Virus record (IMG/VR): IMGVR_UViG_3300035182_001904
Length of the DNA: 64,000 bases
Strand: one strand, 5' to 3'
Source: a virus
The position numbers were made by a program, and so were the translations under genes. Each line of letters starts with the position of its first letter. Position 1 is the first letter of the stretch. Shown one piece after another: positions 28,964 through 54,095 of the stretch. A model generated the notes under the pieces. It was not told where the DNA came from. It saw only the letters and a program-made list of their open reading frames with translations, and did not search any database.

Positions 28964-28968
28964 GGGGA

Positions 28969-30110: not shown

Positions 30111-30638
30111 ATGTCCATTATCGCCGCGGTGCTCGTGTTCCTGTTCACGTCGCCCAACGACGCCGACGCCTTGCGAAGAACGGCCCCCAACGATCTGACG
30201 GCGCCGGCGGCGATGGAGCACCTGACCTCGGCACGCATCGCAGCTTCGTTCTACGGCATCGACGCGGACATGTTGCTCAGCACCGCGTACTTCGAGAGCC
30301 GCTACACCTCGAGCGTGGTGGGCCCAGTCGTAGCAGGCAAGACCGCATGCGGCGTGCTGCAGCCGACCATGGAAACGAAGTGCGTGGGCCAGACCGTGCT
30401 CGAGGACTACCTCGACGGGGCCAAGCACCTGCAGGACTGGTATCGCGCGTGTCGTGGCAACGAGCGGTGCGCACTGCTCGGCTACGGAGGTGGCTACGCG
30501 CTGATCAAGAGCTGCGCCGAAGGCCCCGTCATGCGTGAGCGTGGTGGCCGCAAGGTCGACCTGTGCACGATCCCCGACATCCGCCAGTTCCGTGCTCGTT
30601 GGATTAAAAAAGAGCGGGCGAAGCGCTCGAACAGCTAA
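30111..30638 (+). CDS. Lytic transglycosylase (SLT)-like protein
   Basis: YGIDADMLLSTAYFESRY...ACGVLQ...ALLGYGGG. Confidence 0.7.
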   Translation: MSIIAAVLVFLFTSPNDADALRRTAPNDLTAPAAMEHLTSARIAASFYGIDADMLLSTAYFESRYTSSVVGPVVAGKTACGVLQPTMETKCVGQTVLEDYLDGAKHLQDWYRACRGNERCALLGYGGGYALIKSCAEGPVMRERGGRKVDLCTIPDIRQFRARWIKKERAKRSNS

Positions 30639-30833
30639 CCGTCGCGGAACTTGAGGTCGAGCTTCTTCAGCGTGGCCGCGTTGACGATCACCTCACCCAC
30701 TGTCTCGTACGCGAACCGCGGTAGATAGTCGACCGCGCTGCCGATGCACATGAGGCACGTCGGAAACTCGTGGCAGACGTCGTACTCCGGCGTGATCCCC
30801 GAAGGGGTGACGTCGTCGTTCTCGACGACGATC
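30635..30833 (-). pseudogene. Displaced 3' half of the HC3 gene at 30854-31135
   Basis: Starts with the duplicated segment A and ends ...PRFAYETVGEV...KFRDG; deleting 204 bp restores a 98-aa ORF. Confidence 0.6.
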
Positions 30834-31037
30834 GCATACACGACAGGAACTGGTCATCGGAGACATAGAAACCTTGGCGACAAGCCCCAAGCGTTCCTGA
30901 TAACAGGGTCACGCGCGAACCGCGGTAGATAGTCGACCGCGCTGCCGATGCACATGAGGCACGTCGGAAACTCGTGGCAGACGTCGTACTCCGGCGTGAT
31001 CCCCGAAGGGGTGACGTCGTCGTTCTCGACGACGATC
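30710..31037. repeat. A-B-A repeat: exact 124-bp direct repeat (30710-30833, 30914-31037) enclosing an 80-bp copy of 32249-32328
   Basis: Aligned by eye; B differs from its donor only at 30908 (G) versus 32323 (T). Confidence 0.9.
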
Positions 31038-31135
31038 TCGCCGCACTGGGTGTAGATATGACGGTAGCCATAGCTACCTGCGATGTGGACGATGCCGTGT
31101 TCGTCCTTCCAGCCTGGCGTGTGGATCATGATCAC
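30854..31135 (-). CDS. HC3 zinc-motif family protein
   Basis: DEHGIVH..C..PTCLMC. Confidence 0.7.
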   Translation of the reverse strand: MIMIHTPGWKDEHGIVHIAGSYGYRHIYTQCGEIVVENDDVTPSGITPEYDVCHEFPTCLMCIGSAVDYLPRFARDPVIRNAWGLSPRFLCLR

Positions 31136-31389
31136 CTCTTACTACGCAAGTAGCGGACCAACGAACCCGATTCGACGGGATCAGAGTTCGCGCTCCACCA
31201 TGTCGTTGTGTACATCTTCGCAAGGCACTGAAGACACGTAACGATCACGCCTTGGTCGATGGCGAACCAAGCTTCAGCGAGACCGCACACGGCGACATCT
31301 TCGTTGCCACGGTGATGTACGTAGACTTCGTTCTGGTCGTAGACTGCATGGACGATACCCGTCGTAGACTTGGCAACGTAGGTACTCAC
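31132..31389 (-). CDS. HC3 zinc-motif family protein
   Basis: TGIVH..C..VTCLQC; GTGA overlap. Confidence 0.7.
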   Translation of the reverse strand: MSTYVAKSTTGIVHAVYDQNEVYVHHRGNEDVAVCGLAEAWFAIDQGVIVTCLQCLAKMYTTTWWSANSDPVESGSLVRYLRSKR

Positions 31390-31640
31390 GCACCCTTGCC
31401 CAAGCACTGAAAGCATGTGACCGCACCAGGGTCGATTGCGGGCGCGTTGTTCACCTCTTTGCGAGAGAGCCCCATGTTGTCGCACATGCGCGCCCAGCCT
31501 CGCGTCAACCGCGACCACACCACGCGATGGGTGAGACTGTCCTCGTCCCCCATGCGGAAGGTTCCGATCCCGAACTGGCTTTCGCGCTCGTCGCAGTCTT
31601 GGAGATGGATCAACGACCAACGGTCATCGATTTCAGACAT
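31386..31640 (-). CDS. HC3 zinc-motif family protein
   Basis: DSLTH..C..VTCFQC; AGGAG RBS. Confidence 0.7.
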   Translation of the reverse strand: MSEIDDRWSLIHLQDCDERESQFGIGTFRMGDEDSLTHRVVWSRLTRGWARMCDNMGLSRKEVNNAPAIDPGAVTCFQCLGKGA

Positions 31641-31761
31641 TGTCGTGCTCCTTATCACCACGCGACCTCCGCGAGGCGCTTGGCCTTGTTGAAGGTCTTC
31701 GCGAAGCTTGTCCCCTTGCCGAAGTAAGGCGCGTCAAGGGGCTTGGCGTAGTTCCATGACG

Positions 31762-32010
31762 TCACTCCTTGGCGTTTATCACGTCTGAGATCGGCTCAGC
31801 AACAATACACCGCATGCACGTGGGGAAGTCGTCGGTCTTGGTTCGGGCGTTGACGTCATCAACGGTAACGGAGTACCCGCAGAATGTTGTGTACGAAACA
31901 CGCTTGACACCTCGAGACATCTTGTACTCGGACCGATAGATGCGATGGCGGAGCTTGCGGAAGGGGTCGTGCCAATGCCAAGGCATTGTGGAACGGTAGA
32001 CAAGGATCAC
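31762..32010 (-). CDS. HC3 zinc-motif family protein
   Basis: KLRH..TFCG..PTCMRC; GTGA overlap. Confidence 0.7.
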   Translation of the reverse strand: MILVYRSTMPWHWHDPFRKLRHRIYRSEYKMSRGVKRVSYTTFCGYSVTVDDVNARTKTDDFPTCMRCIVAEPISDVINAKE

Positions 32011-32486
32011 GGCTTCTCGTACGTCTTCAACAACTTGTCGAGTCCAGGGTTGCGCCTCAGCCACTCATCGAAGAGCTTCGCCACTTCCTCGGAAGTGAGG
32101 CTGTACGCTTCATCGAGAACACGCCGGGGTATGTTCTGCATGTTGGGCTTGGAGCTGTTGAGCGTCGACCCGTACACCTGGGCGACCCGTGATTCTTTCT
32201 GAGTCTGTCGGAAGCTGATTCCGTCCGTACACACGCCCGATGCGCAACGCATACACGACAGGAACTGGTCATCGGAGACATAGAAACCTTGGCGACAAGC
32301 CCCAAGCGTTCCTGATAACAGGTTCACGTAGACGCCACACTCGGTAATACCGTCCGTGGGGTAGACATGAACGTCACGCTGTTCGTAGCTCGACCCGTGT
32401 GCCGCGAGCACCATGTGCACGAGGTTGTCGTGGTAGGGCCCGCTGCTGTAGCGAAACGTCCAGCGGTCGCGCCCCAGCGGCCTCAT
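32007..32486 (-). CDS. HC3 zinc-motif protein fused to a PolA-like fragment
   Basis: DNLVH..TECG..SCMRC, then RQTQK..YG, SSKPNMQNIP, EEVAKLFDEWLRRNPGL. Confidence 0.7.
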   Translation of the reverse strand: MRPLGRDRWTFRYSSGPYHDNLVHMVLAAHGSSYEQRDVHVYPTDGITECGVYVNLLSGTLGACRQGFYVSDDQFLSCMRCASGVCTDGISFRQTQKESRVAQVYGSTLNSSKPNMQNIPRRVLDEAYSLTSEEVAKLFDEWLRRNPGLDKLLKTYEKP

Positions 32487-32674
32487 CGGCTCTCCCATGC
32501 GATGCACTCCAGGCATGTGGGTATTCGATTTCCCGCTTGAATCTCATCGCTTCCAAAGTAGCGGCCGCACCACGTCTGATACGCAGTAAGGCTGCGTCCG
32601 GGGAAATTCACGATGTGGACGATGCCAACGCCATCAACGACGGTGTACTCGCTACGTTTTGATGTCACGTTCAC
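32483..32674 (-). CDS. HC3 zinc-motif family protein
   Basis: DGVGIVH..TWCG..PTCLEC. Confidence 0.7.
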   Translation of the reverse strand: MNVTSKRSEYTVVDGVGIVHIVNFPGRSLTAYQTWCGRYFGSDEIQAGNRIPTCLECIAWESR

Positions 32675-32885
32675 AGCCCGGCTCCCAGGCATTCTGCCCG
32701 TCGAGCTGCCCGGATGTCCATGACGCAGCGGCGTAGACGCCCGCTTCGAAGGAGCGGCAGCCCACCGCTGCGATGGTGAGGTTGCGCACGAGGTTCATGA
32801 CCCAGCGGGTCTGCAGGGCCTCGAGCATCTCCTGACGGATTAGCTCGGTGCGCAAGACGCGCGTGTCCTCGTTGTCGCGACTCAC
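32652..32885 (-). CDS. Hypothetical protein
   Basis: GTGA overlap with the upstream ORF. Confidence 0.4.
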   Translation of the reverse strand: MSRDNEDTRVLRTELIRQEMLEALQTRWVMNLVRNLTIAAVGCRSFEAGVYAAASWTSGQLDGQNAWEPGCERDIKT

Positions 32886-33388
32886 GGCGCCGCTTTCAAC
32901 CGTTCGAGGTGGGCCTCGAGGTGCACGAGCGCATCGTCGAGCGTCGCGAACGTGGCGGGCCGCGTCTCCATCATCTCCGCACGACAACCAACGGCGTGGC
33001 CGTCGAACTGAGCGATGCGGTTGCAGTTACAGCGATACATCTCGTAGTACTGCTTCCGTGCCTTCACGATGTCGATCGCGGCTTGCACCCCCTTCTGCTC
33101 TTCTGTGCCGTCCGCGAGCCCTCGACCGTAGATACACTCGAGCTTCTCGCTCAGGTACGCGATGTGGAGCGGTGCGAACGGCAGGTGGATGTCGCCGTGC
33201 ACGTTCGCGTGCACCCACTCGATGCCAGAGCTGTCGGCTTCGTGGCAGAGCTTGATGTACTCGTTCATCAGGCCCGTGAACTCGATGAAGGCGTGGCAGC
33301 CCGAGGCCACCGCAGCCCTGTAGAACGCGTTCGAGGCGGCGTGCATCTTCGCAAGAATCGCGGCACGCTCTTCGTGGGTTTCTTTCAT
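32882..33388 (-). CDS. Hypothetical protein
   Basis: MKETHEER...GCHAFIEFTGLMNEYIKLC; TGATG overlap. Confidence 0.65.
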   Translation of the reverse strand: MKETHEERAAILAKMHAASNAFYRAAVASGCHAFIEFTGLMNEYIKLCHEADSSGIEWVHANVHGDIHLPFAPLHIAYLSEKLECIYGRGLADGTEEQKGVQAAIDIVKARKQYYEMYRCNCNRIAQFDGHAVGCRAEMMETRPATFATLDDALVHLEAHLERLKAAP

Positions 33389-33666
33389 CAGTCCTTCGCT
33401 TTCACGATGCACTGGAGGCACGTGATGAGAGGGCAGTGCTCGCGGTCGTATTCGACGACGGGCGTTCGTACCTGGATGGTGGTGTCGCAGAGCAACACCG
33501 TTGAGAACGAACCGCTGACCATCGGCAAGCGCCCCACTCGATGCAGGAGGCCGTCGATGTTCGCGGTCCACACCTTGACGCTGAGAGTGGCGAACACCTG
33601 GGCCTCCTCGAACATACGTAGGTAGTTCCACGACGGATCGAGCGCAGACCGCGCCCGAGGAACCAC
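33388..33666 (-). CDS. HC3 zinc-motif family protein (start uncertain)
   Basis: DGLLH..LLCD..ITCLQC. Confidence 0.65.
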   Translation of the reverse strand: MVPRARSALDPSWNYLRMFEEAQVFATLSVKVWTANIDGLLHRVGRLPMVSGSFSTVLLCDTTIQVRTPVVEYDREHCPLITCLQCIVKAKD

Positions 33667-33700
33667 CCGGAGACGCGAGCCCCCAGCGTTGCGATCCAGG

Positions 33701-33871
33701 TTACGGGCTCTTCAAACACTCGGGCTTCACCATCGTCTTGACGGTGTCCTCGACCTTGCTCTCGTAGCTCCACGAGTAGTGAGCCGTGCGCTCGAGGTAC
33801 CAACCTCCGACAGCAAGGGCGCCCGCGAAGATGAGCACGAGGGCGTAGATGGCGACTTGCTTGGCGTTCAT
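33701..33871 (-). CDS. Small single-TM protein
   Basis: MNAKQVAIYALVLIFAGALAVGGW. Confidence 0.55.
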   Translation of the reverse strand: MNAKQVAIYALVLIFAGALAVGGWYLERTAHYSWSYESKVEDTVKTMVKPECLKSP

Positions 33872-34196
33872 GTCTTGGCTTTCTCCTGTTCCTTGTACGC
33901 GCGCATCAACGCCTCCTGCTTGAGACGCTCGGGCCAGTAGACCTCGGGCAGGCTGTAGTAGGCGCCCTTCGCCTCGACGAGTGGTCACGAATCTCCACGC
34001 ACAGCAGGCACGTCTTGTATGAACTGGGGGAACCGTCCCAGACGCCGCTCGAGTAGTCGTACTTCGTGCCCTTGGGGATGGGCTCACGACACTCCGAGCA
34101 CGTGTGCTCCTTGCGCGCCTTGCGGACCGCCCTGGACGCGCACGTAGGGCCTTCACCATCGTTGCCTTGCAGCGGGCAGCAAACAACGGTGCTCAT
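33868..34196 (-). pseudogene. Zinc-binding protein with a frameshift/deletion junction near 33985
   Basis: RKARKEHTCSEC..IPKG..Y...KTCLLC..RDH, then coherent coding continues in another frame (LVEAKGAYYSLPEVYW...AKT). Confidence 0.5.
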
Positions 34197-34381
34197 GAAC
34201 GCCCTGTGTAGAGGTGGGCGTAGGCGACGCACGGGATGCACGTCGGCGGACCTTCGACCTCAGGATAGCCGCCTGTATGATCGCCGTGCGGTGCCATACA
34301 TACGGTCATGTAGGTACGGGCCTGTTCGATGTGAACAAGCCCGTCTCTAGGGAAAATCAAGATGAACCGTTGCCGATTCAC
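34193..34381 (-). CDS. HC3 zinc-motif family protein
   Basis: RDGLVH..TVC..PTCIPC. Confidence 0.7.
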   Translation of the reverse strand: MNRQRFILIFPRDGLVHIEQARTYMTVCMAPHGDHTGGYPEVEGPPTCIPCVAYAHLYTGRS

Positions 34382-34401
34382 CGTGCGTCGAACTGCAGGC
34401 G

Positions 34402-34650
34402 CTAGGCGGTCGCGTCCTTGATGATCTTGTTCAGGACGCTCGTGTCGACCGGACGGGCCACACGGCGCGGCATCATCTTGAGCTTGACACCCTCCTTGCG
34501 GAGGCGGGTCGACATCGCCGACACCGTGTTGCGAGACAGGCCCGTCGCTGCGACGACCTCCGCCACGTTGTTCGCCTTGGTCCAGTTCTTCACGAAAGCC
34601 TCGTACGAGTACGGGGCGCTCTTCTTGCCGTTGCCGTTGGTCTTTGACAT
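34402..34650 (-). CDS. HTH DNA-binding protein
   Basis: VAEVVAATGLSRNTVSAMSTRLRKEGV. Confidence 0.7.
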   Translation of the reverse strand: MSKTNGNGKKSAPYSYEAFVKNWTKANNVAEVVAATGLSRNTVSAMSTRLRKEGVKLKMMPRRVARPVDTSVLNKIIKDATA

Positions 34651-34713
34651 GAGTCGTTTTTGGCATAGAGCTTGACCTCCGTCAAGAGTTACGTTGGTAC
34701 GATAAACAAGACC

Positions 34714-34941
34714 CTAGAAATCACCCCACGGTCTGTCAGCCCACATCCAGTCGTGCATCGTCACTCCTGCAGCGCAACCCATGCACGACACCGGCTGTTC
34801 CGTTGCCTCGGTGTCACCTGTCATCAGGCCACACTTGAACCAAGGCCACTCGGACCGCATGTCGCGGTCGTTCTTCTCACCGAGATGTACGAGCCCCGTA
34901 CGTCGGTCTAGGAAACGGTCAGAGATCAACCGCGGAGGCAT
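34714..34941 (-). CDS. HC3 zinc-motif family protein
   Basis: RTGLVH..KCG..VSCMGC. Confidence 0.7.
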   Translation of the reverse strand: MPPRLISDRFLDRRTGLVHLGEKNDRDMRSEWPWFKCGLMTGDTEATEQPVSCMGCAAGVTMHDWMWADRPWGDF

Positions 34942-35350
34942 GGATGATGTGCTCCTTAGCGAGGCAGCCGAAGCAAGTGACGGCCTCGTCGGTGGACAGG
35001 ATGTACATCGAGTCGACGGTCTCGTCGTCACAGAAACGCTTCCAGACGGTCTCGCCGTGCCCACTGATGTACGGGTACATCCCGACGTGGTGGGTAAGCG
35101 CGGCCGTGCCGAGTTCGCGCCACTTGTGGAACGGCGGCACGTACGACAGCGGTGTCATCATCAAGACCTGGTGGGTGAAGGACTGCTGCGACAGTTTCGC
35201 CTTGATGGTGTCGCCGATGAGGTTCTGCATCGCGACGGTCTGGGTCGGCGTCAGCTGCTCGCCGATCTTGTGCTTGAGCGCGTCCCTGAGGGTCCCGCTC
35301 ATGTGGTCCATGGTCTTCTTCAGCCGCTTCTTACGTTGGCGCTTGTTCAC
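34919..35350 (-). CDS. HC3 zinc-motif family protein with an N-terminal extension
   Basis: LTHH..RFCD..VTCFGC. Confidence 0.7.
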   Translation of the reverse strand: MNKRQRKKRLKKTMDHMSGTLRDALKHKIGEQLTPTQTVAMQNLIGDTIKAKLSQQSFTHQVLMMTPLSYVPPFHKWRELGTAALTHHVGMYPYISGHGETVWKRFCDDETVDSMYILSTDEAVTCFGCLAKEHIIHASAVDL

Positions 35351-35807
35351 GGGCGATGCACTCCAAGCACGTCACGAGGCGGGTCTCCTTCGGGAGGTAG
35401 GCACGGACGCGGTCCCGTGCCTCCTCACCCTGCCAGAAGAACGGACGCTCGCACAACGCGAGACCGTGCTGGTCCGCATATGGCCACAAGGCCACGATGT
35501 GTGCAAGCTCGGTGTCGACGTCGACCATGACGAAACGCTCGTTCACGTGCGCGTCGTTGAGCCTGCAGTCCTCGATGGTCATGTTCTCGTCTTCGACCTG
35601 TTCGCAGTAGAGGTCGTAGCAGCGAGCCCACTCACCCTCGCGGTGGCACTGCTTGATGATGGTCCGCAGGTTGTCGTCGGTGACCTCGTTGTCGAGGTTG
35701 TCCATCACGAGATCCGCACGCGCTTCGAGCGCAGCCTCGTGGGTTGCGTACGCAGAGACGTCGGTCCCGTGACGGTGCTCGTAGTAGATGACGAACACGC
35801 GTTGCAT
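35331..35807 (-). CDS. HC3 zinc-motif family protein with an N-terminal extension
   Basis: TELAH..ALCE..VTCLEC. Confidence 0.7.
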   Translation of the reverse strand: MQRVFVIYYEHRHGTDVSAYATHEAALEARADLVMDNLDNEVTDDNLRTIIKQCHREGEWARCYDLYCEQVEDENMTIEDCRLNDAHVNERFVMVDVDTELAHIVALWPYADQHGLALCERPFFWQGEEARDRVRAYLPKETRLVTCLECIAREQAPT

Positions 35808-36145
35808 CAGTCCAGCCCTCCCATGGCCACGCAACGCAGACACGTCGGCGCTTCGTGGACGTTCCACGCGACGACGGTGAAGCGGAGCTTCGCAGCGATC
35901 GGAGAGCCGGGCGACGTCATCGCGTCGTGCATGTCGACGTTGGGCAGATTGTGCGACCCGGCCCAGGGCAACCGTTGCGGGTTCGCGACCATCGTGACCG
36001 CGGGATGACAGGCCGTCGCGACGTGGAGCGCCGAGATCAAGCTCTCGTTGGCATCGTCGAAGAAGCGCATCACCGAGGCCATGTGCACGAGGCCGTCCTT
36101 GTCACGAACGGCCCAGATGTTCCGTTGGGGACGGAGCCGCGTCAT
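35807..36145 (-). CDS. HC3 zinc-motif family protein
   Basis: DKDGLVH..TAC..PTCLRC. Confidence 0.7.
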   Translation of the reverse strand: MTRLRPQRNIWAVRDKDGLVHMASVMRFFDDANESLISALHVATACHPAVTMVANPQRLPWAGSHNLPNVDMHDAMTSPGSPIAAKLRFTVVAWNVHEAPTCLRCVAMGGLD

Positions 36146-36381
36146 CGCCGCGCCCCAGGTCGCTGCGGGCAGAACCGGTTCTCGTGCGGCCCCAGGCACA
36201 CCGTGCAGTGCGTCTTGCCCGTCTTGATCTCCAGCTCGATCGAGTCAGCGGTCTTGCGGAACATCTCGGCGCGGTTCCGATGAACCCCTCCGTAATGCCC
36301 GCGACCTTCTTCGTACGAAGCCCAGCGCAGCTCGTCGTCGGCGAGCTTGTTCCAGTGGGCCGCGGATTCTTGCGTCGTCAT
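36142..36381 (-). CDS. Small zinc-binding protein
   Basis: HCTVC..H...C; ATGA overlaps. Confidence 0.55.
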   Translation of the reverse strand: MTTQESAAHWNKLADDELRWASYEEGRGHYGGVHRNRAEMFRKTADSIELEIKTGKTHCTVCLGPHENRFCPQRPGARR

Positions 36382-36608
36382 GATTCTTTCTCCTGACCAG
36401 CGCCGCTCGAGGGCGGTGCGATCGCGCAGTAGAGGCACGTGAACGGCGTAGTCGTCGGCTTGATGGGCAGGATGTCGCGTTCGAGGAATCGCACGGGGTC
36501 GTTGTGGTGCGCGAAGTCCCGCCGACACGCCGTGAGGCCGTACTCGTACTTCGTCTCCGGAACGCGTACCAGGTGCACGAGCCCATCGAAGAGAGCGAGC
36601 ACATTCAT
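36378..36608 (-). CDS. HC3 zinc-motif family protein
   Basis: FDGLVH..TAC..FTCLYC. Confidence 0.7.
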   Translation of the reverse strand: MNVLALFDGLVHLVRVPETKYEYGLTACRRDFAHHNDPVRFLERDILPIKPTTTPFTCLYCAIAPPSSGAGQEKES

Positions 36609-37036
36609 TCGTCGGGCCAGACCGGATGGACCTCTTCCATCTTGCCGTTGTTGAAGACCCAACGCCACACCATGCCGTCTTCGCCCGCCATCTGGAGGTA
36701 GCTTCCATGCTCGACGAACGGTGCGACCGCGCGCCAGAGAACAGGATCGTCACCCAGCTTCTCGCCGTTGAAGCTGATACCCACGACGTCGCCTGTCTTC
36801 TCGTCGGCGTGCGCTTCGTAGCGCCACGCTTCGAACGCGACCTCGAGCGTCTTGGCGAGATAGAACTCGTCCGTGGTGACCCACGAGAAATGGCGTGAGC
36901 AGCCGTGCGAACCCCACGAACCACCACCCATCTTGGACTCGTCCTCGGCGAGCGCACGGATGGCCTCGAGGGCTTTGCTCTTGTTGGCGGCCTTGATGAA
37001 GAAGTGCGATTCCATGAGCGAGATGCAGTAGCCCAC
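36605..37036 (-). CDS. Hypothetical protein (start uncertain)
   Basis: GEKLGDD..LW.AVAPFVEHGSYLQMAGEDG..WRW, a typical phage ORF. Confidence 0.65.
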   Translation of the reverse strand: MGYCISLMESHFFIKAANKSKALEAIRALAEDESKMGGGSWGSHGCSRHFSWVTTDEFYLAKTLEVAFEAWRYEAHADEKTGDVVGISFNGEKLGDDPVLWRAVAPFVEHGSYLQMAGEDGMVWRWVFNNGKMEEVHPVWPDE

Positions 37037-37038
37037 GA

Positions 37039-37251
37039 CTACGCGCTCCCAAACCGGAACGAGATGAAGCACGGGTCACCGTCTTCGTCGCTCACGAAGA
37101 ACCCCCGCTCGTCGAGCTTCTTCTTGTCCTCCTCCGTGACATCACTGGGGTCGATACCGCAGATCGTCAGCACGTCGTGCTCGCAGTGCGTTGGGTTCCG
37201 TGGGTTGCCGTACTTGAGCAGGAGGGTCAGGGCTTCGATGAGGTCCTTCAC
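37039..37251 (-). CDS. Hypothetical protein
   Basis: DLIEALTLLLKYGNP..PTHCEHDVL...FRFGSA. Confidence 0.65.
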   Translation of the reverse strand: MKDLIEALTLLLKYGNPRNPTHCEHDVLTICGIDPSDVTEEDKKKLDERGFFVSDEDGDPCFISFRFGSA

Positions 37252-37505
37252 GATGCCGGCTCCTCGGCCTTCGCCTTGCCTGGCTGCGGGCTGCGGATCC
37301 ATTCCTCCTGAGCGAACAGCACGCACGCACCGTCGACCTTCATGTCGTGCGGGCCGGCGGGCTGCAGCTCGAACAGCTTCGGCGTGCCGTCATCGTTGTA
37401 CTCGACGATCTTGAACGGCATGGACTTGAGGACGATGCCACCAGGCAGATGGAGCTGCGACGGGATGGTCTTGGGTCCGGCGGTCTTCTTGGTCGATGAC
37501 TTCAC
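37248..37505 (-). CDS. Hypothetical protein
   Basis: GTGA overlaps at both ends. Confidence 0.5.
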   Translation of the reverse strand: MKSSTKKTAGPKTIPSQLHLPGGIVLKSMPFKIVEYNDDGTPKLFELQPAGPHDMKVDGACVLFAQEEWIRSPQPGKAKAEEPAS

Positions 37506-37690
37506 GATTCTTCCTTGAGTTCTCCGCTAGGGAGGGTTTGTGGGTGGCGCTTCCACCACGCCTTGAACTGCGTGTTCAGGTACTCGATGTCGTAGCCCAC
37601 GTACAATGCGGCGCCGGCCTGAAACGCCTGCCACGCGATGTCGGCCGGACGGAGGAGAGGCTTACGCGGTCTTGCCTTCTTGGGCGGCAT
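37502..37690 (-). CDS. Hypothetical protein
   Basis: MPPKKARP... following an AGGAA RBS-like site. Confidence 0.45.
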   Translation of the reverse strand: MPPKKARPRKPLLRPADIAWQAFQAGAALYVGYDIEYLNTQFKAWWKRHPQTLPSGELKEES

Positions 37691-37844
37691 CGCGTTCCTT
37701 TCGTTGCCTGCGCTCGGCACGCGTCAGGCGCCAGCGCACAGGGCCGTTGGTGCCGTACTGGTACGTGTGCCTGCCCTTGTGGTTCATAGGCAACGTGCAG
37801 CGGTACAACGTGCTGTGGTGCTTGATGTTGCACGCCGTCATTCG

Positions 37845-38288
37845 CTATTCCTCCGGTTCGTCGGTTTCAGCGGCGTCACGTAGCGGGTTGTAGTCCCACT
37901 TGAAACGGGCGTAGCTCCACTCGTTCCCAGGTTCGTCCGGATTGTTGTTGGTGTCGTACGTCTCGAAGTTGTGTCCCTCGTCCACGTATGTATTACCAAC
38001 AATACGTCGGGCATCCGCGTACGCAGCGCTCGTTGACTCACAGCCGTGCACCGGGTGACGGTCATCCTCCCCAAGGACCATCCAGCGCAACTCCTCGACA
38101 GTCATATCGAGCAGCAGTGCGATGGCTTCAAACTTCTCGACGTCGCTCTGTTTGGGGCCATGACCGGGCTCGTTGTGCCCACACGTCAGCATTTGAATGA
38201 CCATGTACAAATCGTTACGCTGCTTGTACAGCCTCGCAATCTGTTCTTCGGGCGTCATGTCTTTGATACATTTGGCAGGCTGAGACAT
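37845..38288 (-). CDS. Hypothetical protein
   Basis: 147-aa ORF starting 3 nt after an upstream stop. Confidence 0.55.
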   Translation of the reverse strand: MSQPAKCIKDMTPEEQIARLYKQRNDLYMVIQMLTCGHNEPGHGPKQSDVEKFEAIALLLDMTVEELRWMVLGEDDRHPVHGCESTSAAYADARRIVGNTYVDEGHNFETYDTNNNPDEPGNEWSYARFKWDYNPLRDAAETDEPEE

Positions 38289-38468
38289 GTGGTTACTCCT
38301 CGGGTTCGATGGCCTCGTTGGCCTCGTAGTTCGGGTTGTTCAGGACCTCGGGGCGATAGCCCTGGAGCTTGTCCTTGATGCAGCTGAAGCAGACCCGCGC
38401 GAGCGGGATGCCTCGAGCGTCGCACTCCCACCAGGAACCGTCGCCCTTCTCGTGGCGTCCGTTGCAGG

Positions 38469-38699
38469 TCATTTCGATGCCTCCGGGTCAACGACGTCGA
38501 TGACACGCCCGCCAGGGCTGAACTTGCAGTGCGCCCGCGCCGTCTCCAACGGAGACGACGATATAGGTTTCGGTTGCACAGGCGTGTAGCGTGACATCCG
38601 CTCAAGTGGAATACGCGCGTTCTCGTCACCTGTAATCTCGACGGCTCGGTGTTCGAGACCAAGCGGGATCTTCGGAGATCGATGTCGTCGACGCTTCAC
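38469..38699 (-). CDS. Hypothetical protein
   Basis: GTGA overlap. Confidence 0.45.
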   Translation of the reverse strand: MKRRRHRSPKIPLGLEHRAVEITGDENARIPLERMSRYTPVQPKPISSSPLETARAHCKFSPGGRVIDVVDPEASK

Positions 38700-38857
38700 G
38701 GTCGCCACGACGGGTCCAATACCTCGAGCGCCTTGCGTGCGTGGCAACGCATGCACAGGCACACCGTGCCGCAGTTGCTACGTCGGCAAGGCTGCATGGC
38801 CGCGTCACGTAGCGCCGGGATGGCGTGTTTACGGAGAGCGTCATCGTGATGCATCAT
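38696..38857 (-). CDS. Small zinc-binding protein
   Basis: CRRSNCGTVCLCMRCHAR. Confidence 0.45.
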   Translation of the reverse strand: MMHHDDALRKHAIPALRDAAMQPCRRSNCGTVCLCMRCHARKALEVLDPSWRP

Positions 38858-39428
38858 CAGCGCTTCGCCTTGGGTGGAAATCTTCTCCGGGCGTGGCCGG
38901 ATAGTGCACCGCGCACACTGGGCGATACACATCGTCCCCGCCGAGCAGCACCTGTTGGTCCCCTGCGATCAACCGTTGGTTGAACGTCGCCTTGCGGTTG
39001 CAGAAAAAGCAGGTCGTCTTGACCTCTTCGATGCTGTCCGCCAGCTCGAACAAACGCTGCGACGCTGGGAAGAGGCGGCGACGGAAGTCGGTGCGCAGCC
39101 CGTAACAGATGACGGGCACGCCCTCGTGATGCGCGACGCTGTGAAGCTGATCGACTACGCGGGCCGTGAGGAACTGCGCCTCGTCAACCAACACGCACGC
39201 GATGCCTGTCCACAGCTTGTCGGGAAGGCCGTCGTCGTCGACGAGCACATCCGCCTTGGCCGAGAGCCCAGAACGCGATGCGACGACGTCCTCACCGAAC
39301 CGCGTGTCCAGCTTGGGCTTGATGATGACGACGCGCTTGCCCTGCAGCTGATAGTTGTGCGCGACGGCGAGCAGGTTGAGCGTCTTGGCCGAGGAGACGA
39401 CGCCGTAGCGGAAGTAGAGCTTGGCCAT
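38841..39428 (-). CDS. tdk: Thymidine kinase
   Basis: KLYFRYGVVSSAKT, VLVDEAQFL, VICYGLRTDF, LFELADSIEEVKTTC..C, Y.PVC..HY. Confidence 0.95.
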   Translation of the reverse strand: MAKLYFRYGVVSSAKTLNLLAVAHNYQLQGKRVVIIKPKLDTRFGEDVVASRSGLSAKADVLVDDDGLPDKLWTGIACVLVDEAQFLTARVVDQLHSVAHHEGVPVICYGLRTDFRRRLFPASQRLFELADSIEEVKTTCFFCNRKATFNQRLIAGDQQVLLGGDDVYRPVCAVHYPATPGEDFHPRRSADDASR

Positions 39429-39429
39429 G

Positions 39430-39726
39430 CTAGTTGTCGCCTTTGTTCTGCATCACATGCAGAGCGAGCCCGCGTCCTCGCGCCATCCGCTCGCGCCGAA
39501 CCTTCACGAGGTCGGGCGGACGTTTCCCACACAGCTTCGCGCCCTCTTCGAGAAGCTTCTCGAGACGCCCCACCTCTTGTGCAAGCGTCGCGTGTGCAGC
39601 TGACAACACGTCGTAGAAATCACCAGCGAGACCCCGTTCGTGACAGACCGCGTCGATCTCATCCTTGATGGCACGCAGGAGGCGCTGGTACGTGAACTCG
39701 TAGACGTCCTGCAGGTCATCCCCCAC
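39430..39726 (-). CDS. Hypothetical protein (start uncertain)
   Basis: Helical ORF ending 1 nt before tdk. Confidence 0.5.
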   Translation of the reverse strand: MGDDLQDVYEFTYQRLLRAIKDEIDAVCHERGLAGDFYDVLSAAHATLAQEVGRLEKLLEEGAKLCGKRPPDLVKVRRERMARGRGLALHVMQNKGDN

Positions 39727-39907
39727 GAGACGCCTCGAGTGCGAGACACGCGAAACATGTGATGGGCTCATCGTCGTGCACAGTCATCGGCGGACCATAC
39801 TGCGACGTCGCACCGCATAAAATCTCCTCGGCGCGACTACGGATGGTGATGTGCACGAGCCCCCAGCTGTAGATGTTCCAGCCGAAGACGTTCCAATGAA
39901 TCTTCAC
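39716..39907 (-). CDS. HC3 zinc-motif family protein
   Basis: WGLVH..ILCG..ITCFAC. Confidence 0.7.
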   Translation of the reverse strand: MKIHWNVFGWNIYSWGLVHITIRSRAEEILCGATSQYGPPMTVHDDEPITCFACLALEASRGG

Positions 39908-40227
39908 GACGACACCACCGAAAGAATCTTGCAGCCAGCCTCGTGCTCGTTGATGGCGTCCTGCAACGTGCCCTCGTCGAGAAAGTGCTCGACGACCTGA
40001 GACGCCGCATCAGCGTCCCCTTCGACCTCGAGGGTGATGGTGATAGTCGACACGGGGGGTTCGTCCACGAACCCTTGCGCCAAGTTGTTGGCGAGGTCGT
40101 GTAGGAACGGAGCGAACGGGACGTTGTGACCGTGTGCGTCGATGAGCGCCCCGACCTTCGTTGCAAACTGTGTATGCAACGACGCGAGGATGCGGTCTCG
40201 AAGTGCTTCGAGCTGTTCTTTAGACAT
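39904..40227 (-). CDS. Hypothetical protein
   Basis: GTGA overlap downstream. Confidence 0.55.
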   Translation of the reverse strand: MSKEQLEALRDRILASLHTQFATKVGALIDAHGHNVPFAPFLHDLANNLAQGFVDEPPVSTITITLEVEGDADAASQVVEHFLDEGTLQDAINEHEAGCKILSVVSS

Positions 40228-40492
40228 GTCGGTCCACCATCCCACCGCGAAGCCGTCGTGCTTCGCACGAGGCACACGTGTTTGGGTTCATCGAGCACAG
40301 CAGCTTCGCTAGCGTGTATTCGACGGCGACGACCACGCGCGATGTCGTGCCGAACTTCTGACACACGTTGGCGACGTGGAACTTCGCCGTGTGCTCGCTG
40401 ATGTCGAGCTTGTCTGCGATGAGCTTGTTGGAGAGACCTTCGGTGATGAGTGCAGCGACAGCGTCCTCGCGTTGCGTGAGTAGTTTGATCAT
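40220..40492 (-). CDS. Standalone LuxR-type HTH regulator
   Basis: LTQRE..VAALITEGLSNKLIADKLDISEHTAKFHVANVCQK; CxxC tail. Confidence 0.9.
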   Translation of the reverse strand: MIKLLTQREDAVAALITEGLSNKLIADKLDISEHTAKFHVANVCQKFGTTSRVVVAVEYTLAKLLCSMNPNTCASCEARRLRGGMVDRHV

Positions 40493-40499
40493 GTTTCTC

Positions 40500-40730
40500 C
40501 TAGATCGTGCACTTGAGTTCGATGATGTCCATGCGCTGACGTGAGCGGTCGGCGATGCACCAGAGACACGTCACGATGCCGCCCCAGCGCCAGTCGTACG
40601 CACGGGGCACAGTGACATAGCCGCCACACCGCACGTTCAGCTTGGCTTCGGGTGCATGATCTCGTACGGAAATGAAGTGGACGGTCGTGACTTCATGCAC
40701 GAGGTTATCGATGAAGACACAGTCGGTCAC
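40500..40730 (-). CDS. HC3 zinc-motif family protein
   Basis: DNLVH..VRCG..VTCLWC; GTGA overlap. Confidence 0.7.
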   Translation of the reverse strand: MTDCVFIDNLVHEVTTVHFISVRDHAPEAKLNVRCGGYVTVPRAYDWRWGGIVTCLWCIADRSRQRMDIIELKCTI

Positions 40731-40975
40731 GTCGACGTCACCAGGTTCGGCCCACCAACACCCCACTCGAACCAACACAACGAACTGCCATCCGCGCCAC
40801 TGAGGCACCAGAAGCACGTGGGTACGGCGTTCACGTCATAGTGCTGGTCCATCGACGATGCAGCGAATCGACCCCGGCACATGGCGAGGTTGAGCATTCG
40901 AACATCACGAAGGTGGACGACAGGATCGGGTCCTTTGATGCGGACGTAGTCGGTGTACTTCATGACGTAGGCCAT
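40727..40975 (-). CDS. HC3 zinc-motif family protein
   Basis: DPVVH..AMC..PTCFWC. Confidence 0.7.
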   Translation of the reverse strand: MAYVMKYTDYVRIKGPDPVVHLRDVRMLNLAMCRGRFAASSMDQHYDVNAVPTCFWCLSGADGSSLCWFEWGVGGPNLVTST

Positions 40976-41226
40976 CAGCGTTGGGCTCCTGCGATGCACC
41001 AGAGACACGTGACGTCGGCGAGCGTATCTTCGAGGGTCTCGTTCGCGTACGGGTCGCACGCAGGCATGCGAATCCGGTCAACATCACCAGGCGCATATCG
41101 CACATGGACGACGCCTCGGGTATCACACAACGCCCACGGCAACCCGCTGCGCGGGACGTGCAGCAAAGGGCCGTGCTTGCTCATCGGCGGAGGTGTGTGA
41201 GGTGTTGGACGACGGAACTTGGTCAT
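40975..41226 (-). CDS. HC3 zinc-motif family protein
   Basis: DTRGVVH..PAC..VTCLWC. Confidence 0.7.
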   Translation of the reverse strand: MTKFRRPTPHTPPPMSKHGPLLHVPRSGLPWALCDTRGVVHVRYAPGDVDRIRMPACDPYANETLEDTLADVTCLWCIAGAQR

Positions 41227-41441
41227 GGGGCTTCGTCGCCTTTTGCCAAACATTGGAGGCAAGTTATGAAGCCCTTGAAGACGCGCGGCTTCTTGCCACC
41301 GCTTGTCGTCCAAAGCGTGTCGTGAGACTCACACAACGTGGCCCACGCGAACGTGCCGTCGTTCCACCACTCGACGACAACATGTCGAACACCATCAACC
41401 TTCCAGACGACATCCGGCAGGGTGCGGTTGTCCCAGCTCAC
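41223..41441 (-). CDS. HC3 zinc-motif family protein
   Basis: DGVRH..TLC..ITCLQC. Confidence 0.7.
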   Translation of the reverse strand: MSWDNRTLPDVVWKVDGVRHVVVEWWNDGTFAWATLCESHDTLWTTSGGKKPRVFKGFITCLQCLAKGDEAP

Positions 41442-41614
41442 CGGAACCTCCTGCCCGCGATGCACCAGAAGCACGTCACGGGTCGAGCGGTACGGATCGG
41501 GCCCCGATGGCTACCCGGAACGTAGACGCTCATGCGGCACTTGTGGTTATTCGAAGAGCCGATGACGTGAAAGTGCACAAGACCTCGAGCATCCACAACG
41601 TGGGGATAGTTCAC
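41438..41614 (-). CDS. HC3 zinc-motif family protein
   Basis: DARGLVH..HKC..VTCFWC. Confidence 0.7.
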   Translation of the reverse strand: MNYPHVVDARGLVHFHVIGSSNNHKCRMSVYVPGSHRGPIRTARPVTCFWCIAGRRFR

Positions 41615-42144
41615 GGCGGCTTGATCTCCTCGAGGGGACGCCCGTAGCCACGCCACTCCTTCAAGCAGTCATCACACGTGATGACTCGGTGGCGCGCGGT
41701 CAGGAACTTGCGGATGGAGACGCCACACATCGCGTAGGGGGACTCCGCACGAACGATGTGCACGGTGTTCGGGTGATACGGATACTCGAGCAACCGTGCG
41801 TCCGTGCCTGGGCCGAGCGTGTAGTGTTTGTCGGTGGGCATGTTGGCGTAGCGCCAATGCCGAGGGTTGATACATGTGGCCAAGCCGCACGTATTGTTGA
41901 GCACCAGACGCTTGATGCCGACCCCGTCGTTCTCCCAGCACCACAGCAACCGAGCCACCACGAACTGTGTGGAGACTTCATACGGCGGTGACCATGGAAA
42001 GATGGCGGTAGGACCTTCGCCATCGTCGTGGAACTCCGCGAGCCAGTACCAGTGATTCGGGGTGACCTCGACGAACGGGTCAACAAGGTCACGTGGAGGC
42101 AGTACCGTAGAGCGTCCGTGGTGTGGTTGTAGGCGAGCACCCAT
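41611..42144 (-). CDS. Degenerate HNH-like domain fused to an HC3 module
   Basis: HWYW...VARLLW...NTCGLATCINPRHW, then NTVH..AMCG..ITCDDC. Confidence 0.7.
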   Translation of the reverse strand: MGARLQPHHGRSTVLPPRDLVDPFVEVTPNHWYWLAEFHDDGEGPTAIFPWSPPYEVSTQFVVARLLWCWENDGVGIKRLVLNNTCGLATCINPRHWRYANMPTDKHYTLGPGTDARLLEYPYHPNTVHIVRAESPYAMCGVSIRKFLTARHRVITCDDCLKEWRGYGRPLEEIKPP

Positions 42145-42731
42145 CAGCAACCTCCTTTGCATGTGATGACAGCGTTCGAGGCGAGCACGACCGAGACCTC
42201 GGGGATGATGAGGGCATCGCACATCGCAACGAAGCGCGACGTGAGGTGAGGAGGCGCCGAGACCGTGTGGGAGACGCCGTGCTGGTCGCGCACGGCCAGG
42301 AGAAGGCGGGCCTGGACAACGCGCCCCGAACGAACCTCAGCAACCCGCCACCCTTCGGCCAGGGGGTGGAAGCGGTAGCGGACGGGCAGCGAACGCCACT
42401 TCCAGTGGTTCGGGTTCACGCAGTGCGGAAGCGAACACAAAGGCTCGAAAACTGAGTACTCCGGGAAGGGGCCTTTGTAGTGTTCGATAAGCAACCGTGC
42501 AACCGAGAAAATTGCACGCTTAACACTGGCCTTGGGTGACCATGAAATGATCGCTTGGCCGCCTGCACTAAGGCGTCGTGGATGTTTGGCTGCAGAATCA
42601 AGCCTCCAAAACCAATGGTCTGAAGCGTCATCACCCTTTTCGACGTACCGCGTCAGATACTCGAGGGTCGGTCGCTGGTCCTTCAGTCGGGAGGCCGAAT
42701 GAGGGATCAATAGGTTGGGCGATCTCGACAT
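42144..42731 (-). CDS. Degenerate HNH-like domain fused to an HC3 module
   Basis: HWFW...SVARLL...LCSLPHCVNPNHW, then DQHGVSH..AMC..ITCKGGC. Confidence 0.7.
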   Translation of the reverse strand: MSRSPNLLIPHSASRLKDQRPTLEYLTRYVEKGDDASDHWFWRLDSAAKHPRRLSAGGQAIISWSPKASVKRAIFSVARLLIEHYKGPFPEYSVFEPLCSLPHCVNPNHWKWRSLPVRYRFHPLAEGWRVAEVRSGRVVQARLLLAVRDQHGVSHTVSAPPHLTSRFVAMCDALIIPEVSVVLASNAVITCKGGC

Positions 42732-42892
42732 TGTCGTTTTAGACCTCGTACTCCATTAATATGGATGGACCCAGGAAACGCTGCGGCCGCCGCGGCGCCT
42801 CTACTCTACTCTATATACTAGGATCATAATGGTTTTAGTTTAGGGGGTCGAGGGGGAGGGGCCAAATCGCAACATTTAACGCGGAACCAACA

Positions 42893-43067
42893 GCAACCTA
42901 ACCGATTACCGGTATGATTTCGGCGTAGCGCACGAGGTACATGTGGTGTAGGTTGGTGTGTGCCGACGTACGTGAGACGACGACACGTAAGATAACGTGC
43001 GCAAAAACCGAAAAAATACGTCTTTTAGGCGCTAACCCGAAATCATACCGGCGATCGGTTAGGTTGC
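42893..43067. repeat. 39-bp imperfect inverted repeat (42893-42931 / 43029-43067, 35/39 identical) in an AT-richer intergenic region
   Basis: GCAACCTAACCGATTACCGGTATGATTTCGGCGTAGCGC versus GCGCTAACCCGAAATCATACCGGCGATCGGTTAGGTTGC. Confidence 0.85.
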
Positions 43068-43181
43068 ACTTAGGTTGTTGTTTGTGGTTGCGGTTTACTA
43101 GAACCGCAAGGTAAACCCTTTCACTCCTTAACGAGAGCCCTTTGGGCGTTTCCAAAACCGTTGATCACGTGAGCAGAGCGC

Positions 43182-53990: not shown

Positions 53991-54095
53991 GTTGACCTCG
54001 GTCCCGATGGAACCACGTCAGCGGTTGGTAACCGGGCCACGTCAGACTGATGCACGGACGGCCTCGCTGTGCACCGCATGTTGTACATGCACTAT

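Follow-up and report, generated by a model that had tools for sequence, protein, structure and literature searches.

A single uncultured phage carries about 45 copies, each under selection, of an unnamed family of small HC3 proteins, built around one His and three Cys residues, and no sequence match for these copies was found in Pfam, PHROG, NCBIfam or PDB. With about 45 diverged members it is among the largest gene families seen in any phage. We consider it most likely, with a probability of about one half, that these proteins are diversified small metal-stapled binders used for host takeover, nucleic-acid binding being the main rival explanation.

Size and layout of the array

The phage genome (158,425 bp, 62% GC, with numerous spurious ORFs) originates from sediment and microbial-mat samples; the window analysed here is a stretch of 64,000 nucleotides. 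An HMM trained on 31 copies (local HMM) recognized 45 ORFs at E<2e-3, all on one strand between 25.5 and 70.8 kb of the genome, the best match on the opposite strand having E=0.2. A second, independently built profile (A2, 140 homologues) likewise gave 45 matches in the phage genome, on the same strand throughout. The window holds 33 of the 45 copies. Of these, 22 are genes of the block 30635-42731 (two fusion proteins, the other 20 mini-proteins), a second cluster at 52999-55762 has 10, and a single one is at 61119-61316. About 12 more lie outside the window, at 26-37 kb of the genome. The motif [TS]C[LFIMVW]xC[ILVA] has 33 occurrences when the window is read in its three minus-strand frames, versus one in the plus-strand frames.

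A sequence-only reading had proposed a minus-strand H...C...TCxxC family, unannotated and amplified about 30-fold, with 21 members in the block and about 32 in the window, chained by ATGA/GTGA overlaps. The family is real, and the profile counts (22, 33 and, for the genome, 45) agree with this proposal. Both quoted examples are present (DEHGIVH...PTCLMC at 30854-31135, DARGLVH...VTCFWC at 41438-41656), and the family is indeed unannotated. The NTGA end of a gene is the start of the next ORF in 26 of the 45 genes and a one-base overlap occurs in 4 more, so that 30/45 genes overlap the next one. The block also encodes a thymidine kinase, a GerE/LuxR regulator and further small non-structural genes. 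Its features are, from the upstream region to the last gene (E-values from A2 unless stated):

42732-43181, no strand: low-GC divergent intergenic region upstream of the block; promoter-like site at 42851-42823 (minus) and imperfect inverted repeat
42147-42731, minus: His-Me-finger-like (HNH-like) N-terminal domain with C-terminal HC3 (ITCKGGC end), fusion group B, first gene of the block
41614-42144, minus: second His-Me-finger-like + HC3 fusion, group A, C-terminus VH...C...ITCDDC
41438-41602, minus: HC3 mini-protein gene (interval from the start of the domain to the stop codon), E 4e-12, DARGLVH...VTCFWC
41223-41408, minus: HC3 mini-protein gene, E 1.3e-11
40975-41136, minus: HC3 mini-protein gene, E 4.4e-12
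40727-40969, minus: HC3 mini-protein gene, E 8.4e-9
40500-40712, minus: HC3 mini-protein gene, E 1.1e-9
39716-39871, minus: HC3 mini-protein gene, E 3.7e-11
36378-36590, minus: HC3 mini-protein gene, E 7.6e-11
35807-36145, minus: HC3 gene with long insert from His to CxxC, two pieces (E 2.7e-3 and 3.9e-3); local HMM E 5e-7
35331-35525, minus: HC3 domain, C-terminal in a longer protein (~158-178 aa), E 3e-8
34919-35092, minus: HC3 domain, C-terminal in a ~143-aa protein, E 8.5e-7
34714-34914, minus: HC3 mini-protein gene, SCMGC variant, E 6.3e-9
34193-34351, minus: HC3 mini-protein gene, E 1.2e-11
33388-33570, minus: HC3 mini-protein gene, E 3.2e-9
32483-32653, minus: HC3 mini-protein gene, modelled copy, E 1.5e-15
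32007-32543, minus: HC3-like gene, LSCMRC variant with 80-aa C-terminal tail, local HMM E 6e-9 (training member), absent from the A2 list
31762-31974, minus: HC3 mini-protein gene, E 5.3e-9
31386-31550, minus: HC3 mini-protein gene, E 2.3e-7
31132-31371, minus: HC3 mini-protein gene, E 2e-9
30854-31135, minus: HC3 mini-protein gene broken off by an A-B-A duplication (repeat D1), E 4.3e-15, DEHGIVH...PTCLMC
30635-30796, minus: last gene of the block, a second copy of the C-terminal half of the gene before it that covers only the CxxC part, E 5e-4
30612-30628, minus: terminator-like hairpin and T-run directly after the last gene (consensus match only, regional counts near chance)

The second cluster and the isolated copy comprise the following genes:

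55544-55762, minus: HC3 gene, E 6.5e-4; orthologue in L003 100% identical
55329-55514, minus: HC3 mini-protein gene, E 2.1e-8
55144-55308, minus: HC3 mini-protein gene, E 1.6e-14
54523-54708, minus: HC3 mini-protein gene, E 5.2e-12
54299-54484, minus: HC3 mini-protein gene, E 1.3e-15
54096-54284, minus: HC3 mini-protein gene, E 1.2e-14
53799-53993, minus: HC3 mini-protein gene, E 1.1e-10
53597-53743, minus: HC3 mini-protein gene, E 4.5e-6
53268-53795, minus: weak member within a longer ORF whose C-terminus carries ITH...VTCLLC, recognized by the local HMM only (E 5e-4); orthologue in L003
52999-53262, minus: HC3 gene with extra Cys-rich C-terminal tail, E 1.4e-8; best match in L002 (E 4e-18); no other member has a clear orthologue in another lineage
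61119-61316, minus: isolated HC3 mini-protein gene, E 1.7e-10

The family is present in several phage lineages. Four other metagenomic phage lineages have 28-54 copies per 7-20 kb, and arrays of 54, 28, 53, 45 and 34 copies, each on one strand, were found on other metagenomic contigs.

Conserved residues, predicted fold and putative metal site

The domain of about 55 residues is usually the entire protein and always C-terminal. Among the 140 homologues only H26, C42, C60 and C63, the last two forming the CxxC pair, are invariant, and a Gly and a Thr are nearly so. A search of 1.8 billion proteins returned 269 cluster representatives at E<1e-3, and since all of these are small and some carry two or three tandem domains, the domain is autonomous.

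The common scaffold proposed earlier is supported by the alignment of the 140 homologues and by AlphaFold2 (AF2), according to which the copies share one confident family-level fold. The model of the copy at 32483-32653 (full gene 32483-32692; pLDDT 79, pTM 0.64) predicts five strands and a C-terminal helix beginning at the CxxC, that is, a small beta-barrel-like sheet closed by the helix. One metal ion, probably zinc, would staple the domain, its ligands being the His of strand 2, the Cys that follows strand 3 and the CxxC that opens the helix; we infer this site because its four ligands are invariant in 140 sequences and sit on neighbouring elements of the model. Among solved structures the predicted fold has no significant counterpart (best Z 3.1), so that structure gives no functional transfer.

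Relationship to known families

The sequence-only reading had also mentioned an HC3-type finger family of actinobacteria. The uncharacterised short His-Cys3 zinc-finger family zf-HC3 (PF16827), found mainly in Actinomycetota, is probably the closest named family by predicted shape and language-model features only, whereas its Pfam HMM matched no copy: a search of the genome in six frames at E<=10 gave no match (curated cut-off 25 bits), and none was obtained for the 140 homologues at E<=10 or for 20 proteins at E<=1. The best ESM-Atlas shape match of the AF2 model was a 78-aa actinobacterial cluster (TM 0.68/0.61, rmsd 2.1 A over 57 residues); zf-HC3 is assigned to 23% of its members, and both compared structures are predicted models. 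For two different copies, language-model features likewise placed this cluster nearest among the Pfam-bearing ones (0.88). In ligand identity and number and in length the two families agree, one His and three Cys being the only strongly conserved residues in ~60-70 aa (zf-HC3 ~67), but the present family is phage-encoded with dozens of copies per genome. As zf-HC3 has no known function, such a kinship would not explain the role of the phage copies.

The HC3 CxxC is predicted to supply two ligands from the N-terminal end of a helix, as the CxxC in the second half of a treble clef does. Assignment to the zinc ribbons or treble clefs was nevertheless rejected: there is one conserved CxxC, a first zinc knuckle is missing, and the lone His and lone Cys are on separate strands. 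The only related Pfam match was zf_Tbcl (one of 140 sequences, E 0.0056). Five short strands and a C-terminal helix are also found in SH3-like barrels such as PWWP, Tudor, chromo and the retroviral integrase C-terminal domain; however, the Z of 2.0-3.1 is well below the usual noise level of the tool, no sequence similarity was found, and these barrels have no metal site, whereas the HC3 domain has a putative one.

Bacillus phage G, likewise a large phage in which a single tiny zinc-finger protein is present dozens of times, has a lineage-specific expansion of about 35 small zinc ribbons, which was termed 'unprecedented' and for which a role as specific transcription factors or structural DNA-binding proteins was proposed (Iyer et al., 2021; PMC7824862). 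The A2 profile gave no match in the phage G record NC_023719 (497 kb) against 45 in the present genome as positive control; the phage G ribbon is a different domain. Unlike the phage G ribbon, the HC3 domain has one CxxC with separate His and Cys ligands, and the family occurs in several uncultured high-GC phage lineages, where it reaches 45-54 copies within 13-45 kb.

Two fusion proteins at the head of the block

Both fusion proteins are conserved across four lineages, and neither had a Pfam match at E up to 1. The first (42147-42731) matched phrog_1872 endonuclease (E 2.9e-7) and phrog_826 HNH (E 7e-4). It has orthologues in L021 and L022 and was included in an alignment of six sequences (A4), which hhalign matched to A2 over the C-terminal part (probability 90.7%, E 1.3e-6). 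The second (41614-42144) is 36-39% identical to its orthologues in L002 and L021, and hhalign matched it to the HC3 profile. Its N-terminal domain was modelled by AF2 with pLDDT 80-95, and the top four VIA structural matches were I-PpoI (Z 5.0), NFI (4.9), I-HmuI (4.8) and SMAD MH1 (4.5), the next being at 2.5. In A4, H31, C86, C91, N93 and H96 are invariant alignment positions, and the CxxxxCxNPxH loop is kept; judging from the residues preceding this loop, the nuclease-like proteins seem to have no obvious catalytic His there.

These two proteins at 41614-42731, the only ones that the comparison covers, resemble His-Me-finger homing endonucleases and the DNA-binding derivatives of these in their PHROG endonuclease and HNH matches and in that the top four structural matches belong to one superfamily. 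They differ in the low absolute Z and in having HC3, not a known DNA-binding module, as C-terminal partner.

Selection and turnover of the repertoire

In one pair of related phages, with gapped and non-orthologous parts left out, orthologous family copies had a median dN/dS of 0.21 (n=18) versus 0.216 (n=21) for non-family neighbours, and pooled codons gave 0.17 and 0.28 for the loops versus 0.19 for the scaffold. Each copy is individually constrained and kept by purifying selection. Paralogue pairs have a median identity of 23.5% and a maximum of 40%, one partial duplicate aside, and therefore duplication is mostly ancient. Moreover, no variants were seen across 13 kb in four runs. The diversity of the family is old, and point-mutation hypervariability is not supported as its source.

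The earlier claim that hypervariable loops are under arms-race selection is not supported by these values, and a fast-evolving library of anti-defence binders under ongoing diversifying selection appears unlikely to us: orthologues evolve like their neighbours, loop codons show no excess over the scaffold, close paralogues are missing, one partial duplicate aside, and the four runs show no variants in 13 kb. Such a library would fit the paralogues having only the ligands and two turns in common, as well as the preferential gain and loss of family genes between related phages, 7 of the 27 family genes of the related phage having no orthologue here versus 2 of 24 other genes. It would also fit the recent patch duplication described below and a lineage-specific burst in L022, where 35 of 47 best matches lie within its own contig.

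A very improbable explanation is that the ORFs are non-functional, being open frames that arose by chance in GC-rich DNA, duplicates in decay, or selfish mobile mini-genes spread by their nuclease-like neighbours. In its favour, the genes are short in a genome rich in spurious ORFs, the block opens with two nuclease-like genes, and a duplication has visibly disrupted one copy. However, the strand and frame specificity of 45 to 0, a dN/dS of ~0.2, four residues invariant in 140 sequences from several lineages, translational coupling and the confident fold prediction all speak against it, as does the apparent lack of a catalytic His in the nuclease-like proteins.

The repertoire turns over as genes are gained and lost and as patches recombine between copies. 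Within 30635-30796, 124 nt are 100% identical to 30914-31037, and in four runs this duplication shows junction contigs and a doubled depth; an 81-nt patch at 30833-30913 was copied from the gene at 32007-32543 (repeat D4). Junction contigs in four runs back a live recombination patch between copies. In the upstream intergenic region an opposite-strand joint at 42931-43000 was observed in 4/4 runs.

Possible function

The roughly 45 genes per genome are arranged in long operons of one direction with translational coupling, located in the non-structural part of the phage, and would be expressed from these. If the proteins are binders for host takeover, the minimal metal-stapled scaffold would present different surfaces (loops, N-terminal extensions, helix face), by which different copies may bind different host or phage macromolecules while the cell is taken over, and the repertoire would be renewed by gene gain and loss and patch recombination instead of point mutation. 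Since the copies are old and individually constrained, a separate target for each is most likely. The heterogeneous net charge of the domains (-13 to +14) fits diverse targets.

It is conceivable, though we would put it clearly behind, that the copies are sequence-specific nucleic-acid-binding modules acting as a large set of small transcription or RNA regulators or DNA-coating proteins together with the multisubunit RNA polymerase of the phage. DNA-binding modules of homing endonucleases usually occupy the C-terminal position, and this is where HC3 lies, behind a domain like that of I-PpoI, I-HmuI or MH1, in two proteins and four lineages. A fused beta/beta-prime RNA polymerase is encoded in the genome, 97 of 199 domains have a pI>8, and, counted from the Thr of TCxxC, helix positions +7, +8, +10 and +13 show a mild excess of K/R (0.21-0.27 versus 0.12 background). 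The weak shape likeness to PWWP, Tudor and the integrase C-terminal domain (Z 2-3) points the same way but is at noise level, an acidic pI (<6) was obtained for 43 of 199 domains, the net charge falling as low as -13, and none of the basic patches is invariant among the 140 homologues. The ~35-copy zinc-ribbon proposal for phage G (PMC7824862) offers a precedent, but from a different family.

As regards the takeover binders, which we prefer, the nuclease-like fusion and the basic character of about half of the copies speak against this reading and point at least partly to nucleic-acid binding.

Size and layout of the array

The repeated ORFs of the minus-strand block at 30635-42731 belong to a large family of mini-proteins built on one domain of about 55 residues with the motif H...C...TCxxC (HC3 domain). 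A local HMM built from 31 copies of this genome detected 45 ORFs at E<2e-3, 14 of which were not part of model building; all lie on one strand at genome 25.5-70.8 kb, and the best opposite-strand ORF reached E=0.2. A second profile, A2, derived mostly from homologues elsewhere, again gave 45 matches on one strand, and for the strict C-terminal motif the window has 33 occurrences in its minus-strand frames versus one in its plus-strand frames. The HC3 genes of the window are distributed as follows:

30635-42731, minus strand: 22 HC3 genes
52999-55762, minus strand: ten HC3 genes
61119-61316, minus strand: one HC3 gene

The sequence-only reading had counted 21 copies in the block and about 32 in the window, which agrees with the 22 and 33 found with the HMM profiles. 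It had also described the genes as chained by overlaps; indeed, 26 of the 45 end in an NTGA that forms the start of the next ORF (40 codons or longer), and a further four overlap it by one base. Nearly all copies stop within about one residue of the domain end, and they are highly diverged from each other (pairwise identity 23.5% in the median, 40% at most).

Upstream, the block borders on a divergent intergenic region of low GC that contains a promoter-like site; downstream, a hairpin and T-run come directly after the last stop codon. Both are consensus matches only; a scan for sigma-70 promoters and terminators gave match counts near chance. No RNA runs holding the block were listed among public runs. 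The block itself is present at 0.99-1.00 of sampled words in four public runs (sediment and microbial-mat metagenomes), which may be the source samples of the phage contig. The following elements were also observed in and next to the block:

42895-43065: imperfect inverted repeat of about 29 nt flanking about 100 bp, within the divergent intergenic region at the upstream edge
33906-34241, 38293-38472 and 38696-38932, minus strand: other small Cys-rich ORFs with CxxC pairs, negative with the HC3 profile

The inverted repeat, at which an "opposite strands" joint (42931-43000) was seen in four of four runs, may serve as an operator, form a hairpin or be an element that inverts, and the Cys-rich ORFs may encode different zinc-finger mini-proteins.

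Conservation and predicted fold of the HC3 domain

The search of 1.84 billion cluster representatives with the HC3 profile yielded 269 proteins at E<1e-3, almost all of them 52-90 aa long. In a few of them the domain is present two or three times in tandem, which argues that it is an independently folding unit. Across 140 aligned sequences the sole invariant columns are His26, Cys42, Cys60 and Cys63 (numbering of the protein of gene 32483-32692), while Gly23 and Thr59 are kept at 90% or more. Since one His and three Cys are a classic structural zinc set, we infer from this invariant set that the domain binds zinc. AlphaFold2 run on the same alignment (pLDDT 79, pTM 0.64) predicts strands at 16-19, 25-29 (bearing the His), 37-40 (followed closely by the lone Cys), 45-47 and 51-53; the C-terminal helix, 61-68, begins at the CxxC. 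One metagenomic homologue of 188 aa (P0007) combines two HC3 domains with an N-terminal HExxHxxGxxH-like zincin motif; its matches to Pfam peptidases are at E 0.07-0.4 only.

Relation to known families

The mini-proteins had been described as unannotated, and Pfam, PHROGs and NCBIfam hold no family for them. Searching the PDB sequences with the HC3 profile gave only Man1 (E 0.08), and Foldseek found no match at E<=0.001 in PDB or BFVD. Those BFVD rows, all short of this threshold, that come from uncultured Caudovirales at 23-28% identity may be members of the family. An exhaustive VIA search had its top score at Z 3.1 (PWWP, SH3 and Tudor-type barrels), which is under the noise level of the tool.

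Among known families the one consistent lead is zf-HC3 (PF16827). The best ESM-Atlas shape match of the HC3 model is a 78-aa actinobacterial cluster (TM 0.68/0.61, rmsd 2.1 A over 57 residues), 23% of whose members carry zf-HC3, and the same cluster was the nearest Pfam-bearing one by language-model features for two different copies (0.88, lead level). Membership in zf-HC3 was not accepted, because its HMM matches neither the genome nor any of the 140 homologues. We therefore treat HC3 as an unnamed family, possibly a remote branch, carried by phages, of a zf-HC3-like superfamily. To our knowledge zf-HC3 has no known function, so that kinship with it would not settle the role of the phage proteins.

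Selection and turnover of the copies

A related metagenomic contig, L003, shares its gene order with genome 25.4-48.4 kb, and the nucleotide identity there is 70-91%. The median dN/dS of 18 orthologous HC3 pairs was 0.21, compared with 0.216 for 21 non-family neighbour genes.

dN/dS by zone of the HC3 proteins (codons pooled from 12 orthologous pairs with L003)
Scaffold: 0.19
His-to-Cys loop: 0.17
Cys-to-CxxC loop: 0.28
N-terminal extension: 0.27
C-terminal tail: 0.22

From these values it follows that the HC3 copies are real genes, each individually constrained, and that on the time scale of the L003 comparison their loops do not evolve faster than the scaffold. Arms-race selection on hypervariable loops, as proposed from the sequence, is not supported by these tests. 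Non-functional ORFs are excluded for practical purposes. An anti-defence role of the proteins as such is not contradicted by the selection tests.

The gene content of the array changes: seven of the 27 family genes of L003 are without an orthologue in this genome versus two of 24 other genes, and L003 has five additional copies where this genome has 240 bp. Recombination between copies was caught in the act at 30710-31037, where an A-B-A mosaic breaks one HC3 gene into two ORFs. Here an exact 124-nt repeat (30710-30833, identical to 30914-31037, 204 nt apart) encloses 81 nt that are a 99% copy of 32248-32328, part of another HC3 gene 1.4 kb away. An assembly artefact is ruled out by the approximately doubled depth of the repeats relative to flanking DNA in four of four runs and by junction-spanning contigs in most of them, with the reservation that these runs may not be independent of the assembly.

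Occurrence in other phages

HC3 homologues occur in a uniform genomic context, namely long co-directional runs of small genes without Pfam matches. The arrays on five other metagenomic contigs are of similar kind, and no HC3 copy was found on their opposite strands.

HC3 arrays of other metagenomic contigs (counts with the A2 HMM)
L002: GC 64%, 54 copies in 20 kb
L003 (relative of this phage): GC 61%, 28 copies in 20 kb
L021: GC 60%, 53 copies in 15 kb
L022: GC 65%, 45 copies in 13 kb
L023: GC 66%, 34 copies in 7 kb

Best-hit analysis revealed clear orthology between lineages for one member only. The copies of the phage studied here match other lineages as often as their own genome (27-41% identity). 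Those of L022 are mostly self-similar, and the 35 of 47 best hits within L022 indicate a lineage-specific burst.

In 50,697 GenBank phage records, tblastn with two family members gave nothing, or chance matches at E=9 only, and species-representative bacterial genomes contained no confirmed HC3 relative. Pattern scans of viral and bacterial genomes with one member and with a TCLWC sub-alignment produced pattern matches and no tblastn-confirmed relative, a weak negative because only one short sequence served for confirmation. Longer fused HC3 forms did not turn up in a word-indexed search.

Possible roles of the HC3 proteins

The best-supported account, to which we give a probability of about one half, is that the array represents a metal-stapled mini-scaffold that shows many surfaces, with each copy kept for its own target. 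The copies would be expressed from coupled operons in the non-structural region.

The main rival is a repertoire of nucleic-acid-binding regulators, which we consider less likely. Such a role has been proposed for a lineage-specific zinc-ribbon expansion in Bacillus phage G, termed unprecedented with its 35 copies (PMC7824862). What the two cases share is that a large phage has multiplied a very small zinc-finger protein; by profile search the two families are not homologous. Two genes at the head of the block, which form two orthologous groups kept across four lineages, bear on this question:

42147-42731, minus strand: fusion protein with His-Me-finger-like N-terminal domain and C-terminal HC3 domain
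41614-42144, minus strand: fusion protein of the same type

Their N-terminal halves match PHROG endonuclease/HNH families, and the AlphaFold2 models of these halves (pLDDT 80-95) match I-PpoI (Z 5.0), NFI (4.9), I-HmuI (4.8) and SMAD MH1 (4.5), all of which are His-Me-finger folds, as the halves themselves would be by this model match; the next row is at 2.5. Profile-profile comparison identifies the C-terminal parts as HC3 domains (hhalign probability 90.7%, E 1.3e-6). That the HC3 domain can act next to a DNA-binding or nuclease module is best argued from this fusion. Lys and Arg are mildly enriched on one face of the C-terminal helix. Over 199 domains the net charge ranges from -13 to +14 and the pI has a median of 8.0 (43 domains below 6, 59 at 6-8, 97 above 8). 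An early subset was acidic to neutral, while the full set is heterogeneous, and pI was dropped as a discriminator.

A more specific form of the mini-scaffold account is tentative: the arrays might be a repertoire of dozens of metal-stapled mini-binders, with a fold without solved structure, each directed against a different host or competitor molecule. If so, no phage would be known to have a larger family of paralogous effectors; the proteins would form a new class that serves host takeover or counters defence, and binder design would gain a minimal scaffold of natural origin.

Gene families of phages mostly comprise between one and a few members. Here a genome of 158 kb carries about 45 copies, and other uncultured lineages have up to 54 within 20 kb; the copies are old and each is under purifying selection, and a clade of large environmental phages therefore devotes about 10 kb of genome to dozens of distinct tiny proteins that have neither a known function nor a solved structure and are not represented in culture. 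In kind, the multiplication of a very small zinc-finger protein within one lineage of large phages is already known. The HC3 domain, its copy scale and its spread across several uncultured phage lineages were not described in the literature searched. Finding the binding targets would open a sizeable piece of phage "dark matter" and would also provide a first functional context for zf-HC3, a Pfam family as yet uncharacterised.

The phage and its genome

The window is the reverse strand of genome 37402-101401 on one 158,425-bp contig with 62% GC, recorded in IMG/VR as linear and, by CheckV, an estimated 85% complete. The phage is distant from cultured ones: searching 50,697 GenBank phage records with the block by megablast gave no match, and most large ORFs of the genome are without a PHROG. 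Its genome also codes for collagen-repeat fibre proteins, a thymidine kinase and a LigT/cupin protein. Further features are:

G000:C1:132476-134848 (genome coordinates, outside the window), minus strand: fused beta/beta-prime RNA polymerase, from Rpb2_6 and Rpb1_2 domain matches
38841-39428, minus strand: thymidine kinase gene inside the HC3 block
44799-50978, plus strand: two large proteins, 803 and 1255 aa long, that contain collagen triple-helix repeats (E 2e-61 and 1e-37)
57069-61019: about 4 kb missing from the syntenic relative L003
58940-61018: 692-aa phrog_1735 protein
27770-29023, minus strand: 417-aa protein that joins a cupin domain to a phosphoesterase domain of the 2H/LigT type (2_5_RNA_ligase2, E 6e-15)
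23558-27738, minus strand: four tandem genes of 342-359 aa

Since one open frame of 1815 codons contains domains of both RNA polymerase subunits, beta (Rpb2_6, E 3e-48) and beta-prime (Rpb1_2, E 3e-17), the phage encodes a fused multisubunit-type RNA polymerase. The closest bacterial relatives of the thymidine kinase (50-60% identity) are in Bdellovibrionota, Oligoflexia, Chlamydiae and "Proteobacteria" MAGs, not in Actinomycetota, and give no clear clue to the host; the ESM-Atlas neighbours of the HC3 domain lean towards Actinomycetota. The collagen-repeat proteins, divergently transcribed from the HC3 block, are probably fibre proteins. The phrog_1735 protein, which falls in the segment missing from L003, shows 42-48% identity to proteins of 547 phage records with very different hosts, including phages of Microcoleus, Ruegeria, Pseudomonas and Salmonella. 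With a weak match to the anti-CBASS protein Acb1 (E 7e-4, under the cut-off), the LigT/cupin protein is a candidate cyclic-nucleotide-degrading anti-defence enzyme. Two of the four tandem genes at 23558-27738 have no PHROG match, and with 56% identity between the two compared, the four appear to form a second, smaller tandem paralogue family.
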